This document shows positions 4,361 to 44,496 of a stretch of DNA of 52,315 bases, in pieces. The stretch covers positions 1 through 52,315 of the forward strand of contig MQRK01250436.1 of NCBI GenBank assembly GCA_001938485.1, in the 5' to 3' direction. This DNA comes from Girardia tigrina (taxonomy: Eukaryota). The first letter of the stretch is position 1; every line of letters starts with the position of its first letter. The notes below the pieces were generated by a model. That model saw only the letters and a list, made by a program, of their open reading frames with translations. It was not told where the DNA came from and searched no databases. Both the position numbers and the translations under genes were made by a program.

Positions 4361-5894
4361 ATCGTTTTTCACAAAAAATAAGGTAATTCCTTCATTTATT
4401 TCCAAAATCATTGTCATCTTATTAACTCTTTTTTTACAAAGAAAAATTTATTTGAACAAATCATAAACAATGTTTTCCTTTCAAATTGTACAAAAACAAA
4501 ATTAAAATATTTTTCGCCATGAACAAAATCAAATTCAAAAATATTGATTCAAACTATCAAAAAAATTCATCTAAACAATTCTTCCAACTTAACAATTGAT
4601 TAAAAAAACAATTTCGATCGATATTCATAAATTCTTTTACAAAAAAACCATACCACAAAAAACGGTAACTATAAACGACTACATCAAAATTACATTAATT
4701 TTCTTATTTAATTTGGCAACAATTTTCATTAATTTTTTAAATGATTTTTTTACTTCTATTTATTTTTTTAATTCAATCAATTATTCGATGGATTTTCGTT
4801 AATTATCAATTTTTCCGCGGAATTTTCGAACAGAATTTCAATTTTTTCATTTTCGATTTTTGATATGTGGAGCGGAGAATTGCTGATTTGACCGAACATT
4901 TTTGCTAGTTTCAGGAAAATATAAATAAATTAAGAAATTAAATGAAATAATTAAATAACTTTAAAAAAAATTAAACAATAAATTAAATAAAGGCTCTATT
5001 TGAAAATGTTTAACAGAGAAGTTGAGTGTGAAGCTTGGATATTAATTTTTGGATCCATGGATCTTATTAATAAGGCCTCACACGTTACTCTCTCCCAGTA
5101 ATNNNNNNNNNNNNNNNNNNNNNNNNNNNNNNNNNNNNNNNNNNNNNNNNNNATTACTGGGAGAGAGTAACGTGTGAGGCCTTATTAATAAGATCCATGG
5201 ATCCAAAAATTAATATCCAAGCTTCACACTCAACTTCTCTGTTAAACATTTTCAAATAGAGCCTTTATTTAATTTATTGTTTAATTTTTTTTAAAGTTAT
5301 TTAATTATTTCATTTAATTTCTTAATTTATTTATATTTTCCTGAAACTAGCAAAAATGTTCGGTCAAATCAGCAATTCTCCGCTCCACATATCAAAAATC
5401 GAAAATGAAAAAATTGAAATTCTGTTCGAAAATTCCGCGGAAAAATTGATAATTAACGAAAATCCATCGAATAATTGATTGAATTAAAAAAATAAATAGA
5501 AGTAAAAAAATCATTTAAAAAATTAATGAAAATTGTTGCCAAATTAAATAAGAAAATTAATGTAATTTTGATGTAGTCGTTTATAGTTACCGTTTTTTGT
5601 GGTATGGTTTTTTTGTAAAAGAATTTATGAATATCGATCGAAATTGTTTTTTTAATCAATTGTTAAGTTGGAAGAATTGTTTAGATGAATTTTTTTGATA
5701 GTTTGAATCAATATTTTTGAATTTGATTTTGTTCATGGCGAAAAATATTTTAATTTTGTTTTTGTACAATTTGAAAGGAAAACATTGTTTATGATTTGTT
5801 CAAATAAATTTTTCTTTGTAAAAAAAGAGTTAATAAGATGACAATGATTTTGGAAATAAATGAAGGAATTACCTTATTTTTTGTGAAAAACGAT
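4361..5894. repeat. 742-bp inverted duplication (palindrome) around a 50-N gap
   Basis: 4361-5102 is the reverse complement of 5153-5894; identical 68-aa ORFs on opposite strands. Confidence 0.95.
5153..5258 (+). mobile_element. Penelope-like GIY-YIG endonuclease C-terminus (mirror copy about 4997-5102)
   Basis: YWERVTCEALLIRSMDPKINIQ matches the PLE E-A-L-x-I...P-x-I/L-N motif; homologous to 20341-20440 and 32060-32200. Confidence 0.75.
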
Positions 5895-11519: not shown

Positions 11520-11760
11520 ATATAATGTTTAATACATGATGGTTTATGAAATTTTTTAAATGCATCGATCTTTGTTTGGTCTGTTTCTATGCCATTCTTA
11601 TTGGCAATGTATACTAAAAATTTTGTTCCTTCTGTTAAGAATTTACACTTTTCTGTGTTTACTTAATCTGCTTCCTTAATTTTCTCTACTCTGTTTTATT
11701 CGTTGAATTTGTTATACTTTATTTTTCGAAAAATCAAGTGGCTACTATCTCGAAAGATAT
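11520..11760 (-). mobile_element. Gypsy reverse transcriptase C-terminal fragment
   Basis: EKCKFLTEGTKFLVYIANKNGIETDQTKIDAFKKFHKP resembles the Ty3/gypsy KCxF..FLG..GI..DPxKI.AI..P motif. Confidence 0.65.
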
Positions 11761-12417: not shown

Positions 12418-12765
12418 TCAATAACATTTTGGTTTTTTTATCAAAATACTGTGTAATCTCATTAGGAGGTTATCAATTTTGTTAATATGTGCACTCAGTT
12501 TCGGAGTCAAATATTTGCTTAAAATATCTTCGCAACCATAAATAATGCCGGATAACGCACCAACTATTATCGGACAATAATTTGAGGGCATTGCGAACGC
12601 CTTGCTTGTCTCCACAGCTTCGGAAAATGAGTTTGTGCTCGAAATGAAGTATATAGAGGCTTTGATAACATCCGTACAGTAACTTCCTCGACTCAGGTTA
12701 GCTCGGGATTCTAAGATAAGACCTTCTTCCAAAGCATTTTTAACCGGAAAAGTAAATTTTACCTT
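12418..12765 (-). pseudogene. ADP-ribosylglycohydrolase-family C-terminal exon
   Basis: GSYCTDVIKASIYFI..SFSEAV..FAMPSNYCPIIVGALSGIIYG..I; candidate AG acceptor just upstream; no upstream exons recognised. Confidence 0.65.
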
Positions 12766-12885
12766 AATAAGAAAATTAGCTAATTAAAACTTTAGATTAT
12801 TTTTACAATAATTAAGAAAAATATATTTATTAAATTTTATTCAATTCTTTATATTTAGAACAATATATCTTAAAATAAATATAAT

Positions 12886-24589: not shown

Positions 24590-24978
24590 TGTTTCCATTT
24601 GGCGAGCAGTGGTATATGTAGGAGCCAATGATAAATCGAGAAAATGTATCAAATATGTGTGTGCCGGTTTGATAAGCCGAAAATTTGATGGCCATAATAT
24701 TCAGAGAAAGGGGTCCGCCGAATGAACTATCATGAGACAATAGTAAGTGTTTTCGATCGGATAAACTGCAACACCTGTGCAGCACGTGGAATGTCATAGT
24801 TAGGTACCGCTGTGCTTACAGACCATCCGGGAACGGTATCGTTGAGAGGAATCATCGGACGATAAAGAGAATGGCAGCAAGGACTAAAGGTGATGTGTTT
24901 GATATGGTGTTCAACCACAAAATAACACCAAAAAACGAGACGGATGACAAGTCAGCTACCAGTAATGGAACCTATCGG
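24590..24978 (+). mobile_element. Gypsy integrase core (not in ORF track)
   Basis: IFRERGPPNELS*DNSKCFRSDKLQHLCSTWNV..RCAYRPSGNGIVERNHRTIKRMAAR, the D..35..E region. Confidence 0.92.
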
Positions 24979-25026
24979 TGTTTCCGAATTGCCCGAAAGA
25001 AAAGAGCATCTGGACCCATAGAGATG

Positions 25027-25642
25027 CCTTCGGACTCCAGGATACACAAAACGCATTCGATTTCTGATTTATAATATCGATTTTGTTTTCTTTCACACAA
25101 CACAATGAGACTGTATCGTTCAAAACCATTAAAAACGACTCTTTCTCATTTAGATGCCACCGCAAATTGACCAACTGACTCTCGGTATTCGGTTTATATT
25201 CACAAAATTTCGATTCTTCATTCTTCAGCAGCGATCTCTCGACACGGAACAGCCGGACAGTCACCAATAGACAATAATCGGTCACCAAGGCGACCAGCAG
25301 AATCGATCCACCGCAACTGAACTCGATCCAGGCGACACTCAACCGGAATTTGATCGAGAAAATCGGATCGACACTCACGAGTTTGTCTTTCAAGTCGACC
25401 GATTCAACACTCGCTCTCTCATTCGAGGAGATTTTGCAGAAATTCACATCGTTGTTGGTAATCGACACCAATAATCCGGCCCGACAATCGATTGCATTAT
25501 ATCGGATGTTTTTCGTGTATTTAGTCGATGTCGATTTGAATGGATGAAGCGTTTGAAAAACAGCATTTAGCGAATTCGATTTGTCGTTAAATCTTTCGAA
25601 TCTTTCACAGAATACTTTAACCATTTTTGTATCGATTTTCAT
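25027..25642 (-). pseudogene. NUP214: NUP214/Nup159 N-terminal beta-propeller, 3'-truncated
   Basis: About 205 uninterrupted codons with IEFSCGGSILLV, LVNLRWH..FLMVLND..L and FCVSWSPK (Nup214 CWSPKGKQL), then abrupt loss of homology. Confidence 0.75.
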
Positions 25643-25896
25643 ATTGATTGATTCCCATTTCGCTAAAAAAACCAATCTTATTAGAATAATTCTCTATTCG
25701 CCGATCACACAGAAACACTGCGCCGTTTATTTGATTATTTCTATTCAAATTTCGATTTAAAATCGATTCGAGTTTGATAATATCGACGAGAAGACTCAGC
25801 GCATCGAAAATCGTATCATTCAATGTTTTTATAATTTTAATATTTGCGGTCTTTTTTAACATCGCGATTAACACAATTCAGTATCCAGAAAAGAAA

Positions 25897-26302
25897 TTCA
25901 CTTTTTTTAATCAATTGAAAACGATAACGTCACGTATCAAATTTACTTTCATCAATAATCAAAACTCTGTCGTATTTACAGGTCATTCAATTCAACACAA
26001 CAAAACAAAACTCAAGGTCATTTTTTTGAGTTTTAAATTATCAAAAATATCATTTTTCAATCTCAAAATAAAATATTACAATTAAACTGGATTTTTTTTC
26101 ACTTTTTTTAATCAATTGAAAACGATAACGTCACGTATCGAATTTACTTTCATCAATAATCAAAACTCTGTCGTATTTACAGGTCATTCAATTCAACACA
26201 ACAAAACAAAACTCAAGGTCATTTTTTTGAGTTTTAAATTATCAAAAATATCATTTTTCAATCTCAAAATAAAATATTACAATTAAACTGGATTTTTTTT
26301 CA
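25897..26302 (+). repeat. 201-bp tandem duplication
   Basis: Two copies starting 25897 and 26098, one substitution seen. Confidence 0.92.
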
Positions 26303-30292: not shown

Positions 30293-30583
30293 TGAAATTT
30301 TTGAGCTGGAAAATTCCAGACTTATAATTGATAATTTCTAGATAAAATTTCAAGAAAAAATAACGGACAAAAAAAACAATTTACCGTTAAAAAATTAATT
30401 AACAAAAAATAAAAAATAAACGGAATAACAATGTTCAATTTTGTTTTACTACTGTGTCTAAAATAAAAAATTTTGATTTAGCTTTCTTTTCACCATTTTC
30501 AATATTATTTTCGATTACGACTTTTCGGTTTCTCTAAAGCCGATTTTCGAGTGCAATTCATCGATTAGTAATCAAAAAATAAA

Positions 30584-30930
30584 ATGCTCGTTTCGAATGA
30601 TCGTGTCGAAATCACGAGAAAGCTCGATGAACTTGCCGATAGTTCCGGTCGGCCTCGTCCGGTCGATGATCCTACCAACCGGTTCCAATTCGTAAAAAGG
30701 AAAACCCTTCCGCAACTAATGCGACATAAATATTCCTTTCCGTTTCTCCATCCGGTCGGTCACACGGCGCTCGGCATCCAAGATCATCCGAAAATCGTGC
30801 ACTATCCAATGGATGTCATTTCCATCATAAATCGATTGATCAAGAAATTCTACTACAACACTGATCAGTGCATTTCCAATGTGATACTAGTGCCCCAGAA
30901 TTACTGTATCTTCAATCCGACCGCTGAATC
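30584..30930 (+). pseudogene. BET-family (BRD2/3/4/fsh-like) first bromodomain fragment
   Basis: TNRFQFV..LMRHKYSFPFLHPV..LGIQDHPKIVHYPMDV.SI..RL..FY...QCI......NYCIFN; several conserved residues altered; homology ends after BD1. Confidence 0.85.
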
Positions 30931-31934
30931 AAACACCATCTCGGTTGTGATGATGAAATTGAGTTCCCGGTCCCCGAGCACTTTGATCACTCTGGGCCAG
31001 ATGCCGGCATTTATATTTACGTCAAAATGCCACCCATTAAAGGTAAACTAATATTTTCATCAACATATTCGCGAGATCTCATCTCGCAGATAAACCACGC
31101 CCACATCACAGATATTAACAATGGAATTTCTTCGCGCTAATCATAGGGAGTGGGAAGAATACAAATACTTAATTGTGAAGTGTGAGCAAAAAATCTGTTG
31201 TTTCATAAAGTACTAAGCAAAAATATTTTCCTTGATTTACTCTTCCTAATTAAACAACATTAAATTAATTGATTTCGTATTAATTAAGACACATGTCTAT
31301 CTCTTGTGTTATTATTTTCTTCCATAATAGGGTCTCTGCAGGTAGCTCTGTAACACAGAAGCTCTGAAGTTTACTTCATTTTCAATGGAAATTTCTGGTT
31401 CGATAACTATATACCAATCATCTCTGTATCCCATGTACAATAAGTTCTCTATTTCAAGAAATATTATGAGTTTAGCAATTAATTTTAGTCTTTCAAATCG
31501 TTTAAATGAGATTTATCTAAATCTACAATGTATTTTGTATTTAAACAAGTATAAGACACAGTGCTTATTATTTTATTACACTTCCCATGATCTCACTAAA
31601 AATTCACATAATCAACTAGAAATTTAGGGGGTTTTAGTACCAGCATCGGTTGATAATTGTTAGAAAAACGAAAGCGATGAATGAAAAAACAAAAAGAAAA
31701 AAAATTAAAACCGATGAAGATAGAAATTACCAAAACAATTAAAATTTTAATTTATTTATATTTTTTGACAATAAATTGTAAATAAAACAATTATGCGATA
31801 TTCTTTCATGTGAAAAAAATCCTCAGAATTTTCGACTCACATTTACTTAGAACATAGAAAAGAATGTTTTTTTAAAAAATAAACTTGAAAAAAGATGGCA
31901 ATTTTTTTATTATAAACAAATAAACACCATTTAA

Positions 31935-34339: not shown

Positions 34340-35240
34340 ATGTGAATATGTTACGGGGGACACTGTCGCAGGTGCCCTCATAATGAGGAAACTTTGGTCC
34401 ATGTACTTACAGGATGTATGTACAGTGAAGGGTTCTGGAATTATAGGCACAACTCGGTCCATTATTGTGTTGGGAAGCAAATAACTCAGTATTTGGACTG
34501 CAAAGTCGACATAAATGTTGAGTATCGATATACTCCTTCACAAGACCAAGTGGATCTTCAGGTATACGTTCAAGGATCTAAGATGCTATACCTGATAGAT
34601 GTCAAGTGTCCATTTGACACGAAGAAGAATATGGAGAATAACAACAAGGAGAATCTCTATCATTACCAGGCTCTTGCTGTTGCTTGCAGGGTAGCAATGC
34701 CAGAGACGACTGTGACAGTGCTCACCCTCCAGGTAGGGTGCCTAGGGACGTGGCCGAAAAGGAGCACTGACATACTCACAACTCTAAAGATCCAACCAAA
34801 AGTGATAAGACAGATTGCAATTGGCTGCTCAGTATCGAATGTGAAATACTCAGCAGCACAATGGTCTTATCACCAAGATGGAATAGTTCCAAGCGGGATC
34901 CAGAGAATAAATAGGATTAATGTAGAAGAGATCCAAGAACCTCAGAAAGGCATGTTAGCGATGGAAGAGATGGAATATGAACATGCTGTTCCTGAGGGAG
35001 AGAAGAATTTGATCCCACCGCCTTGGAAGCACTTGTACAATCTTATAGCTATAGAGTAGGAGTGCAACAGGGGGGAGTATTAGACATTGAGGATCAAACA
35101 GATAATGATCCATCTGAAGATGGGCAGGTCTCCAATCTATATAGGACGAGGATTGGAGATTCATCTGACGATGAAGACAGCTCATCATGGGAAGAGGACT
35201 TGATCTTCGATGATGAATTGTTAAGGCCAGGTGTGTGAAC
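34340..35240 (+). mobile_element. 5'-truncated RLE-type non-LTR retrotransposon (R2/R4/NeSL group), C-terminus
   Basis: CRRCPHNEETLVHVLTGC CCHC knuckle, RHN, VDL...LIDVKCPFD restriction-like endonuclease, VGCLGTW. Confidence 0.88.
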
Positions 35241-35303
35241 AAAAGTGTCAACTAGTTTATATTATTCAACGTTTTATCTGCAGATCTTCCTCGATTAATG
35301 GAT

Positions 35304-35900
35304 TTATTGAGCTAACTTTGTTCCAGCTCTCAATTTCATCGGTTTTGAATCAAAATTGACTAGTCTAATTGGTATTTTTCCACCTCTGAATGATGCTACA
35401 CTTGATACAACGGAAAGGTCGTTTTTAGATTCGAACGATGTTTCTGGTTCAAAGTAACTATTTTGCATATCTTCAATAGACGTATCAGCATTACAAACCA
35501 TTTCGGAATGTTCTGGTATCTCAATTGCTGCCGATATGAAAACATCAGTTTTTTATATATATTCTTTTCTTTTTCTTTAGATTTTAGTTGTCTGCTAGTA
35601 AAGCCAAACACAAGTTCTTTCATCTGATTCAGAACATCCATACCTACTACTGCTTTATATGGACATTGTTTTATAATTTTTACTCAATGTCATAGACAAA
35701 GATTACCAATTTCTACTTTACAATATAGTTGTCCTATAATATTCAACTTATTACTAGATAATGATTTTGATTCGGTCTTTGAGACTATTTTATGTCAATC
35801 TGTTTTTGAAATTAGAGCTTCATCGATTATTGTTATATCTGACCAGGTATCTATTAATGCTGCTACTTCTAGAGTCTAGAAGTCTGGAATCTAGACCATT
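35304..35900 (-). mobile_element. LTR-retrotransposon aspartic protease plus PR-RT spacer (decayed)
   Basis: EVAALIDTWSDITII (DTG mutated to DTW, 35843-35851)..LNIIG..CPYKAVVGMDVL; spacer IPIRLVN....MKLRAGTKLAQ. Confidence 0.8.
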
Positions 35901-36760
35901 TATTTTATCTTTTGTAAGCATTTTTTTTCTGTTTCTGGATACAACATTAACCGTATTTTCTTTAGGTGGTACCGGGTCTGTACGCTCCATGTATTTACGA
36001 TCCTCGGCCGATACTATACCCTCTTCTAATTTATCACATATATTATCTGTTTCGATTTTGATTATACTTCCTTTCTGTTCATTCGCATTTGTAAACTGAC
36101 CTTCATCCTTTGATTTGAGATCTATACTCTTTTTGAATTTTTTAATTTCTTTACTTTGATGGTTCATGATTACAAATTTTGCTAAGAATGGTATACATCC
36201 GGTAATTAACTTCTATGTAAAACCTACTGCCTTGTATAAAGTATTTGTAGACACCAATTGCAGTAAAACTGCTTTGACAACGATTAAAACCGCATATATT
36301 CCAATTAAACCTGCTACAAAAGTGACAAAGCTTGTACATCGCTCCCATGTTTTACGAATTACACTCATAGCTATCTTTTGATAATGGTCTACTCCAAACA
36401 ATAACTCGTAATTAGGCTGCTCAAAATTATCACTCATTACTGTCTCAAACAAATTTTTGATAACTCTTTCTCTCTTGTTTGGAAACAATATATTTCTTCG
36501 AGTTTCTTCTATTTCTTCTTCTGTATAAAGACCACTTTTTTCAAAAGTTTCAACGTTTTCGAATTGAATTTCATGTTCTAGTTTTACCATCTCCCAATTT
36601 TCTATTCTTTGTATCCTTTTTCTGTTAGGTAATATATATGTTACACATATATCATTTGATATTTGATAAGCTGGAGCCATTAACATATTATACTTCAGAA
36701 ATCTAGGTTGTCGATTTGATTGTAATAAAATTCGTGTAACTGGTTCCATATACCCAGAAA
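35901..36760 (-). mobile_element. Chuvirus/gB-like (class III) envelope glycoprotein, C-terminal half
   Basis: MEPVTRIL..PAY..GLYTEEE....ILFP..RE.VI..W......AGLIGIY....K.......LYKAVGF(T*)KL pattern with a TM segment; one in-frame stop. Confidence 0.7.
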
Positions 36761-37109
36761 TTATATTAATAAAAATAAAAATAATAATATCAATCAAGGA
36801 ATATGTATTTCAAAAATTTAAAACAATCACCTGTGCGCATAAATCAAAAATCAATACAAATGAAAATCCAGTTATTCGGTTTTATACCAAAAAAAACAGA
36901 CAGAGATTGACGATGAGAATTACAACCGAAAATCGGATATGGTCCAAAAAAGGACCATGTGAAAATGAATTCAGAATCAATTGTTAAAATATTAATCAAT
37001 TAATATTTTCAATTAATATTTTTTAATCAATTAAATTAACCAATTATTAAAATATATTAAAGTTATTGAAAGTTTATTTTTTTTAAAAAAGTTCTTTTTC
37101 GAATTTTTC

Positions 37110-38140
37110 CGATTACCAACAAAAGTGATCCTTTATATGGCACAGTAAAAAATGGAATTTCGGAATTTAAACGTTGTCGTAAAAGCATTGAAGATAAACC
37201 ACGTAGTGGGCTTCAAAAACTGCGCCAACACAATAAATCGTTGATGAAGTGCATGATATGGTGTTAGATTATCGGCGTGTCAAAGTACGTGAAATAGCTG
37301 ATGCCATGAGCATCTCAAAAGATAGAGTTGTATATATTTTGCATTAAGAATTACACATAAAATAGCTTTGTGCAAGATTGGTGCCACTTTGTTAATGATC
37401 AATCAAAAATGCTTTCGAATGAGAAATTCTCAAGCTTGTTTGGATCGTTTTAGACAAAATAAAGTTGTTTTTAAACATCATTTCATGACTGTTGATGAAA
37501 CAGGGATCCACCATTATACACCAGAAAAAAACAACAGTCAAAACAATGGATTGAAGCTGATGAAAGTGCACCAAAGAAGGTTAAAACAGTTCAATCAACC
37601 AAAGAGGTTAAGACAACAATTCTATGGGATTACAAAGTTGTTTTATTGATCGAGTATCTTGAGAAAGATAAAACGGTCAACTTAGAATATTACTCAAGAC
37701 TTTTGTATCAACTGGATGCAATAATTCGTGAGAAAAGACATGGTTTGACGAAGAAAAAAAAATCATTTTTCATCAAGACAATGCACCTGCTCACAAAAGT
37801 GGTTTGACGATTGCTAGATTGAATGAATTGAAGTACAGATTAGTTGATCATCCACCGTATTCACCAGATTTGGCTCGTAGTGACTATTATTTGTTTCCTA
37901 ACCTAAAAGAGTGCCTTGCTGGAAAGCGTTTTACATCAAATGATGAAGCTATTTAAGCTGTAAACGGTTATTTTGCAGAGCTCGAGGAAAATCTTTTTAA
38001 TCAAGAGATAGAATTGATAGAAAAACGTTTAAATAACTGTATTAATATTTTGGTAGATTATATTGAAAAATAAATATATATCTTCAAACTTAACTTTTGT
38101 TTTTCGTTGTTAGGCTAAGAACTTTTCGGATAGCCCATGC
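37110..38140 (+). mobile_element. mariner (irritans/Himar-like) transposase, decayed
   Basis: ARLVP.LL, TVDETGIHHY, HQDNAPAH, HPPYSPDLARSDYYLFPNLK, G.YIEK*; many frameshifts. Confidence 0.92.
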
Positions 38141-41885: not shown

Positions 41886-44300
41886 GGATCGACGGGGCTA
41901 GCAACCCTATCCTTCGCTAAGACATAGCTTTTAAAACTCAAACAAGGGGTCTGGAAGGACCCGAAGTCATTAANCTCCCGAGAGGGGGATCCCTCGTTAA
42001 GGATTCCACTTGCAGTGGACTGAGGGTTGGAACCTGGAATGTTCGAGGCTTAACCGATGAAAAGATACTAAACATCGTCAGTATCTTCGAAAAACTGAAA
42101 ATTGATATGTGTCAGAGACGCACTGGACCGGAACCGACATTGCCTCTTTCGGGGATTGGAGGATCCATCATAGTGGCAGTACGAGTAGCATAAGGGAAAA
42201 ATCTGGGGATTCAATGAACATCGAATTTGAAGCGATCAGTGAGAGTGTTCCTCTGTCATATACCCCAAAGGTCGATCACAGTGGTGGGGATATACGTTCC
42301 GACTGACAGCGGACACTCAAGTGAAGAAAAGGAAGAGTTCTTCGCATTACTGCAAGAACACGTCGAAAGGGCGACGACTGAGGCTGAAAAGAGGAAACAC
42401 GAACTGATAGTTGGAGGTGACTTCAACTGTCGACTTAATCGGACGGAGGAAAACGGAAAGACTGTCGGGTGTTACACTAGTTCAACAGTAACATCAGAAA
42501 ACGGAGATCTTTTAATAGATCTTGCTGACGCGTGCAACTTACGGGAACAGAACACCTTCTACAAACATAAGTTGGCACAGAGGACTAGCTGGACACACCC
42601 GTCAACGAGAAAAAGACTACTACTGGACTTATTCCTGTCGCAAAAGAGCAGATGCAACAGGATAAGCAATGTCAAAAGCTACCAGAATTTTGACTGCGGC
42701 TCTGACCACGACTTAGTCGTGTTAACGCCAACAACAATAAGGTACTCAAGTTGGCGAATGATAAAAGAAAGAAAAGAAAAGGAAAAATTGACAGATTCTC
42801 CTTGGAGAACAACAAAGTGGCCATTAGTAGTGACATAGGACAGGCTTGTCCAAATGTCGAGAGCTGAGATGATGTGGAGAAGGTCATTTTGAAGACCTCA
42901 GAAAGATACAGAAAGAAAAAAGTCCCGCTCAATCAGAGGTGGCTACAGGGACATCTAGAATGGCTGAAATCACTATTGCAGGAAAAATGGAAGCGAAGGA
43001 AAGAATACATTCAGAATAGATGTGAAAGAACATATTCCACGTGGAAGGCTACAAGACTGAACACCTTGCGGCATCTCAGGAAATGGAAAAGAGAGAGGAT
43101 TGAGGGAATTGGACAAGAAATAGAAAGAATCCTCAACAGAGAGTGTATGGGCAAGACTTCTGAGTTATGGATCACTCATAACTGGGGCGGTTGTCAGTTG
43201 ACTGAGAAGATACAGCAATGTTTCGTGGACATGTGGGAGGAAAGAGCAGAATTCCTGGAGGCCTGGAAAACGGCGAAAGTCGAGATCCTATACAAAGGAA
43301 AGGATTCCAAGAAGGAATTGAATAATTATAGAGGTATATTCCTACTTGATGTAGGAGGAAAGATCATGGCCCGAATCATTGCAAATAGATTACTGCCACA
43401 TCTCGAAAGGATACTGGACGACTGGCAATTTGGTTTCAGACCAAACAGAAGCACCGCGCATGCGATTGGTATCTTACGAAAGATACAAGAAGAGGCCAGA
43501 TACCGGAACATAAACGTATTTGCAATTTTTATCGATCTTGAAAAGGCATTTGACAGTGTACCCAGGAAAGTTCTCTGGGATTGCCTTCAAGGAATTGGAA
43601 TACAGGATCGGATGCTAAGTATCATCATGAAATTTCATGAAGGTTTCACGGGAAGNNNNNNNNNNNNNNNNNNNNNNNNNNNNNNNNNNNNNNNNNNNNN
43701 NNNNNAGCATTGGAAAGGATAAATTCAGTATGGACAAAGGAGTCCATCAGGGTTGCGTATTGGGTCCTCTACTATTCAACCTTGTCTTTGATCATGCAAT
43801 TAAGACCGCGATCAAAGAAGGACTTATCAAGTGGTGTGAAACTAAAATACAATGGGGAAGAGCTGACCGTGAACAGACTTGCTTATGCAGACGACCTGTG
43901 TTTACTGGACGAAGACTATGGAAATATCAAACGGAATCTCACGTGTCTCAATACTGTGTTCTTGAATATGGGGCTCAAAATCAACATTGGGAAAACAAAG
44001 ATCCTGAATCTCAATGGAGCAAAGTACATTACGGCAAGAGACGAGCTGAATGCCGGAATAGAATGGGTGGACGAATTCTGCTACCTGAGATCGATAATTG
44101 AAAGTGGAGGAAGCTCAGGTACGGACATCAAAGCCAGAATTCAGAAAGGAGCAGCAAAATTACGGACGATCAGACCAGTGTTGAAGAACAACAAATTGTC
44201 TCTCCGGAATAAGAAGAACATAATTAACAGCTGTGTCTTCCCGGTGGTTTACTACAGCTGTGAAAACTGGAGGACAAATGAAGTACACGTGAAAAAGCTA
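41772..44300 (+). mobile_element. RTE-like LINE (APE endonuclease plus RT), frameshifted, 3'-truncated
   Basis: VGTWNVRGL, SETHW, GDFN, SDH; YRGIFLL, QFGFR, FIDLEKAFDSV, GVHQGCVLGPLLF, YADD, GLKIN..KTK; short 5' UTR, no ORF1. Confidence 0.92.
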
Positions 44301-44496
44301 AAAATTAAAAGCTAATTATAAGTGTTAGGTTGGGAATTAACTTCCATTCTAAATCAAAAAGAAATTAAGACTTGCAAAAATTTATTCAAACTACCAAAGG
44401 TTAAATTTGTTATTTAAACAAATTTTCATTTTTTATTTTCTTTTTTTCAAATTTATTTTTCCAATATTTTTTATTTTCGATTATAATTCGAAATTT

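Follow-up and report, generated by a model that had tools for sequence, protein, structure and literature searches.

The analysed stretch, hereafter the window, comprises 52,315 nucleotides of Girardia tigrina DNA (contig MQRK01250436.1). The DNA is gapped and animal-like, and its AT-rich composition (about 25% GC) is compatible with several invertebrate groups. Transposon debris is scattered through it: Pfam identifies pieces of mariner/Tc1 and LINE elements and scraps of gypsy integrase. Rfam gives no match anywhere in the window. A relic of about 1.4 kb lies on the minus strand between 36765 and 35307. It carries the C-terminal third of a glycoprotein with its membrane anchor, followed by a charged tail, the remains of a retropepsin and finally a spacer that is dUTPase-like (Table 1). 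The translations quoted in the initial annotation, which described an envelope-like glycoprotein fused in frame upstream of a retroelement protease, are present on this strand. A stop-free frame of 198 codons (36809–36213, minus strand) ends in one TAG and is followed by a frame of 130 codons (36212–35820). Four stops and two frame changes interrupt the copy, and its catalytic motif is altered. Three of these stops, all in the protease frame, the second of the frame changes and the dUTPase-like nature of the "spacer" are additions to the initial annotation. The copy is dead and can make none of the polyprotein products proposed below.

Table 1. Features of the retroelement relic in the window
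Feature	Position	Strand	Evidence
Chuvirus-like (Monjiviricetes-type) class III fusion glycoprotein, C-terminal third, 5' side cut	36120..36765	-	PF24664, profile, relatives
Main membrane anchor	36234..36341	-	Kyte-Doolittle peak 2.58, P0001 residues 157-192; aligned with anchors of 12 relatives
In-frame TAG (break 1) in conserved membrane-proximal stretch	36213..36215	-	Alignment, Pfam
Second, weaker hydrophobic stretch with basic residues	36165..36221	-	Hydropathy 1.51
Charged, poorly conserved envelope-protease linker	35896..36119	-	Alignment
Four-copy tandem array, TC[TC]AGA unit of 7-8 nt, frame change (break 2)	35867..35895	-	Sequence
Ty3/gypsy-type retropepsin relic, catalytic Asp codon 35851, stops 35797, 35692, 35686	35567..35875	-	Pfam, relatives' profile
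dUTPase-like spacer, 81-codon piece, end of relic	35307..35549	-	Pfam, relatives' profile, tblastn

The relic begins near 36765, beside very AT-rich DNA, and ends around 35300, where its neighbour is an ORF on the plus strand (34346–35059). A scan of the window with profiles of the relatives detected no RT–RNase H, integrase or Gag match adjoining the relic. Our repeat check in the window revealed neither a repeat flanking the fragment nor an adjoining LTR of the element. The ends of the fragment are lost, so the missing flanking repeats are uninformative on the LTRs of the parent element. Other gypsy scraps in the window (integrase at 24691–24876 and 44808–44542, RT at 11686–11525) were considered as parts of the same element and rejected, as they are far off, one of them is on the opposite strand and nothing links them to the relic.

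Several neighbouring features were observed in the window. The plus-strand interval 34346–35260, which abuts the relic, has the look of a 3' end with a zinc knuckle and an endonuclease-like part (Pfam zf-RVT, E 0.1). From its motifs, we take the ORF 34346–35059 to be the end of a probable site-specific non-LTR element. An acidic Ser/Asp-rich frame follows this endonuclease-like ORF within the same interval, and the interval as a whole is richer in GC than its flanks. About 550 bases upstream of the relic, a mariner-type transposase fragment is located at 37326–37807 on the plus strand (Pfam Transposase_1, E 3e-17). A LINE (APE-RT) fragment is found at 42218–44315 (plus strand) and a weak ADP-ribosylglycohydrolase-like frame at 12418–12783 (minus strand, E 0.005). 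The intronless bromodomain-like frame at 30572–31051 (plus strand, Pfam E 1.5e-6) has a degenerate look and is a pseudogene or element cargo. At 24691–25693, a gypsy integrase scrap on the plus strand abuts a beta-propeller-like frame of 245 codons on the minus strand (Pfam NUP159/214, E 0.001), for which a word-indexed search returned no homolog among longer proteins. A perfect inverted repeat of 767 nt without spacer surrounds a gap (4361–5894), and a perfect tandem pair of 201 nt is present at 25897–26298. Both repeats are probably assembly artefacts.

The envelope part of the relic matches the Pfam family PF24664 (Monjiviricetes_fusion) over residues 18–246 when the TAG is read as X (E 5.1e-24), with a score of 84.6 bits against a curated cut-off of 27. 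The part before the stop alone scores 66.6 bits (E 1.5e-18). The score thus rises across the TAG, which places the stop inside the gene, as had been proposed when the glycoprotein end and its transmembrane segment were read through one TAG into a charged tail. In a profile of nine full-length relatives, the window piece matches columns 418–631 of 635 (197 bits); the first two-thirds of the glycoprotein are therefore missing. Its identity to six polyprotein relatives is 29–36%. In a protein language-model atlas, the piece is assigned to PF24664 clusters at 0.92–0.93. The Pfam match and the atlas clusters led us to reject both gag and a host membrane protein as identities of the region. The weaker hydrophobic stretch that follows the main anchor contains one to five Lys/Arg residues in the window and in nine relatives, and it probably lies along the cytosolic face of the membrane.

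The fold of the glycoprotein was approached through a natural relative with a whole ectodomain, P0009 (E 4e-26 to the window piece). Its predicted fold (pLDDT 78.5) has herpesvirus gB as the top matches in the PDB (E 1e-13) and chuvirus-type G as the top matches in a viral library (E 3e-44). This model supports a class III (gB-like) fold for the glycoprotein family, as seen on P0009 and not on the window piece itself, and agrees with the earlier proposal of a chuvirus-like class III fusogen. A sequence search of the PDB with the window piece or its alignment gave nothing significant, and the full-length G profile retrieved only weak gB rows from PDB sequences (E about 0.5–0.8). For P0008, folding from the single sequence gave a poor model (pLDDT 39.8), and a fold search started from it is meaningless.

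The first frame change lies within an array of TC[TC]AGA units, which start at 35895, 35888, 35880 and 35873. It had been interpreted as a 22-nt TCTAGA-bounded insertion whose removal restores the reading frame. The length is correct, as it equals the 22 nt from the start of the first unit to that of the last. The array looks like the result of local slippage rather than foreign DNA, which is the likelier origin in our reading. Beyond it, the active-site motif of the protease is not intact in the window copy. Pfam matches to this region remain below cut-off (Asp_protease E 0.008, RVP E 0.03), and a profile of the relatives' proteases matches it with E 3e-19, in favour of the retropepsin that had been expected after the envelope. 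A second frame change, near 35570–35550, separates the protease piece from the spacer piece. For the spacer, dUTPase is the sole Pfam family at E≤10 (E 0.084, below cut-off), and a profile of six relatives at the same place matches it with E 3e-19. In intact relatives, a dUTPase-like spacer sits between the protease and RT.

The glycoprotein (G), protease and spacer were each compared separately, not as a joined translation. With profiles from the relatives they score 197, 72 and 58 bits, respectively, versus at most 0.7 bits for reversed frames. Furthermore, tblastn of the natural relatives P0006, P0007 and P0020 against the window matched G, protease and spacer in order, with collinear protease and spacer matches (sum E 2e-14 to 2e-15). 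The continuation into protease and spacer beyond the frame change, which the initial annotation had read after removing the 22 nt, is upheld by this collinearity and by the profile scores. The catalytic Asp codon is 451 nt (about 150 codons) from the anchor. Of 13 relatives, 12 have a corresponding distance of 116–199 residues, and the remaining one has 376.

An exhaustive protein search with the stop-free G piece yielded 85 proteins at E≤0.001, 20 of them at E≤1e-10. Sixteen of the 85 reach at least 110 residues past G; a protease is present there in 13 of these 16 and before G in none of them. Among the top 20, all nine proteins of sufficient length have the protease after the glycoprotein in the same open frame. 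The three long relatives without a protease are weaker matches, placed on the opposite side of the tree. Some of the proteins counted here also went into the protease profile; Pfam separately found protease matches in the long relatives. The order G-PR-RT-RH-IN is observed within a single protein in P0006, P0007, P0091 and P0093, and G-PR-RT-RH in P0020. These five proteins, with cluster members counted, extend through RT and RNase H. The Env-PR(-RT) order deduced earlier from the window thus recurs in its relatives as Env-PR-RT-RH-IN in one open frame. Gag marks are found ahead of G in P0010 (CCHC) and P0032 (Retrotrans_gag), and also in P0007 and P0013. For the RT-RH-IN region of P0094, a cluster-mate of P0014/P0093, the best match among solved structures is Ty3 Gag-Pol (E 2e-122).

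A tree was calculated from 69 of 88 rows, with 19 short rows dropped; it is unrooted, drawn at the midpoint, and 25 of its 64 inner branches are open. The window G groups with all 14 protease-fused rows kept, on a branch that separates 22 rows from 47 with support 99/94. The 47 rows on the other side are mostly stand-alone chuvirus-like proteins.

Our searches for further copies had the following outcome. A scan of the genome contig collection with P0008 gave 0 loci. An RT-led alignment scan of the genome contigs gave nine loci, and none of the eight examined contains this envelope. The word-indexed homolog search found no homolog of the window G piece among longer proteins, and P0007 returned only itself. 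To be noted, P0007 (HBK71150.1), an Env-Pol polyprotein of 2,627 residues, is filed as a protein of a Flavobacteriaceae MAG and almost surely comes from animal DNA that was placed in a bacterial bin. The loci L002–L009 are likewise gypsy pol in bacterial MAG contigs.

Very probably, the relic is what decay and internal truncation have left of a Ty3/gypsy (Metaviridae) LTR retroelement that had Gag-Env-Pol order in a single frame, of the Burro / flatworm GAG-ENV-POL type. This class is assigned through relatives at 26–32% mean identity, the window itself being without RT, IN, gag or LTR. A different origin of the open glycoprotein frame would be exaptation, in which the host keeps, as a small membrane protein, the 178-codon piece that runs without a stop between the ATG at 36749 and the TAG, while pol decays. 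None of the six breaks falls in this piece (chance 0.06) and one of the six falls in G plus tail (chance 0.04), both values being post hoc and calculated under a uniform model. However, the window G is 32% identical to its relatives versus 44% among the relatives, with no sign of extra conservation, whereas PR (29 vs 30) and spacer (26 vs 26) are as near to the relatives as these are to each other. The piece also lacks a signal sequence and two-thirds of the ectodomain, and the exact protein is absent from the protein collection searched. We regard such a host-kept protein as very unlikely.

Chance neighbourhood of a chuvirus glycoprotein EVE and an unrelated gypsy pol fragment is most improbable. 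Stand-alone chuvirus-like G proteins are indeed common among the matches (the 47 of 69 tree rows mentioned above), transposon debris is present throughout the window, and the G and pol parts are in different frames. But the window G groups with the protease-fused and not with the stand-alone proteins, and G, PR and spacer match the same relatives in the same order with similar spacing. Collinearity and the tree together largely refute this reading. It is likewise hard to believe that the TAG was a genuine end of Env in the live element, leaky or read through, giving Env and Env-Pol in different amounts. A short Env could end at this place, directly behind the main anchor, and P0009 also stops soon after its anchor. 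But the stretch around the TAG is conserved, with an open frame, in 12 of 12 aligned relatives, and the Pfam match extends about 45 residues beyond the stop.

For the intact form of a Gag-Env-Pol retroelement of this kind, the relatives suggest a mode of synthesis. In each of the ten long relatives that were aligned, a signal-like hydrophobic stretch directly precedes the ectodomain, and a single strong anchor follows. The topology is read purely from hydropathy, and a weak second hydrophobic stretch follows the anchor. No R-x-K/R-R site is found in the ectodomain of the polyprotein relatives scanned. The polyprotein would enter the ER via an internal signal sequence after Gag, with Gag staying in the cytosol. 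Signal peptidase would free the N-terminus of the class III ectodomain in the ER lumen, and the single anchor would bring the chain back to the cytosol. PR, the dUTPase-like domain, RT, RNase H and IN would then hang on the Env tail, and this topology would make the protease a membrane-tethered one. It may dimerise and then cut the tethered Pol domains free. Gag, Env and Pol would be made 1:1:1 without frameshift or splicing, and Env could deliver Pol to the budding membrane. Membrane-threaded polyproteins are known from flavi- and hepaciviruses. The proposed threading would work in the same way, here with Gag, Env and Pol in equal amounts.

Additional features are found in the relatives. Two to seven retropepsin domains with D-T-G motifs are present in 8 of 15 protease-bearing relatives or 6 of 13 clusters (P0005, P0006, P0010, P0011/P0091, P0014/P0093 and P0032), counted with a profile partly from the same proteins; Pfam also lists several stretches in six. 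Some of these domains are located after the integrase. P0093 (4,844 aa) contains ankyrin and C2H2 pieces too. In addition, all four relatives that extend past the integrase have, at the C-terminus, a second signal-like stretch and an anchor, 250–350 residues apart, with cysteines. The post-integrase regions of P0006, P0007, P0091 and P0093 are not alignable to one another. From sequence features, this region is predicted to be a second type I membrane protein, and the atlas gives fibronectin-type-III (FN3) membrane proteins as a weak lead for it (0.80–0.85). The entry route of gB-carrying elements is described as unknown, as herpesviruses need partner glycoproteins (PMC13524379). With the route of the gB-type fusogen unexplained, the post-integrase protein becomes a candidate attachment factor, which could serve a fusogen without gD/gH/gL. 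These features may tentatively be taken to mark a wider, little-described branch of Env-first Ty3/gypsy elements to which the fragment would belong, a suggestion we consider less likely than not. In its members, a single membrane-threaded polyprotein, with a length of up to 4,800 residues, would supply the entire particle and include a cascade of two to seven retropepsins and a post-integrase signal-plus-anchor protein. The window copy has a single protease and ends before RT, so neither extra feature is visible in it. Our literature search, whose scope left the original Burro and nematode papers aside, retrieved no paper on extra proteases or a second membrane protein.

The locus itself is of little weight, as the fragment is dead and its kind of element has been described. 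Some weight would be added by a host other than a flatworm, nematode or bryozoan, which would extend the known range of the GAG-ENV-POL order. Two questions arise from the wider family, one about the threading, processing and packaging of a single Gag-Env-Pol polyprotein and one about the way in which a lone gB-type fusogen finds its cells. Intact elements, not the relic, are the material for these threading and entry questions.

The initial annotation contrasted the Env-first order with the usual position of env 3' of pol and implied that it was a surprise. The surprise is not supported, since the order has been published for the Burro elements of planarians (PMC6431247) and for Ty3/gypsy elements of nematodes, bryozoans and flatworms (PMC13524379). 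The window fragment is a new decayed copy of an arrangement already known. According to the description in PMC6431247, Burro elements have env in frame between gag and pol, an order presented there as the first such case, and their env resembles the fusion glycoproteins of mononegaviruses from arthropods and fish. Burro also has a BCL2-like piece ahead of env and a dUTPase-like domain between PR and RT, and fragments in decay, interrupted by stops and frameshifts, are noted in Dugesia japonica (PMC6431247). In our set, residues 9–70 of P0009 form a Bcl-2-like piece before the envelope (Pfam Bcl-2, E 0.001), as in Burro (PMC6431247). The Burro / GYPSM1 giant gypsy elements of dugesiid planarians resemble the window in the gB-type env directly upstream of the protease, and the window spacer after the protease (Pfam E 0.084) is of the same kind as their dUTPase-like domain between PR and RT. 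Unlike Burro, the window relic is without giant size, LTRs and accessory domains, and the two are likened by description, not by sequence. A dUTPase between PR and RT is also described in rotifer elements (PMC5408684).

Non-canonical nematode ERVs (Sacco et al. 2022, doi 10.1099/jgv.0.001739, as cited in PMC13524379) have ENV before POL and a glycoprotein related to RNA-virus G. Both properties are shared with the element described here, again by description only. The elements of that study are said to hold a continuous gag-env-pro-pol ORF. Mosquito BEL/Pao elements carry a Chuviridae-like glycoprotein (PMC7642597, also cited in PMC13524379). Their glycoprotein is of the same family but their retroelement superfamily is another one, as the relatives found here have Ty3-type RT-RH-IN.

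The GAG-ENV-POL order with gB-type ENV is further described for Ty3/gypsy "ancient errantiviruses" of Nematoda, Bryozoa and Platyhelminthes, which do not form one clade (PMC13524379). Gene order, HSV/gB-type envelope and Ty3/gypsy pol are common to these and to the element class of the window, whereas extra proteases or a second membrane protein are not among the features described in the available text of PMC13524379. Six Schmidtea elements are listed there with 1–215 copies (PMC13524379). In the six Schmidtea rows "Platyhelminthes_C1a" of PMC13524379, the N-terminal ectodomain resembles by eye that of the window's long relatives. A YQE motif near the start is present in 9 of 10 long relatives and in all six Schmidtea rows, versus neither of two stand-alone proteins; five other YQE occurrences in the ectodomain file of PMC13524379 are at other positions. 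The closest characterised envelope subtype thus appears to be the flatworm one of Schmidtea, a likeness drawn by eye and through the relatives, as the window is without that part of the ectodomain.
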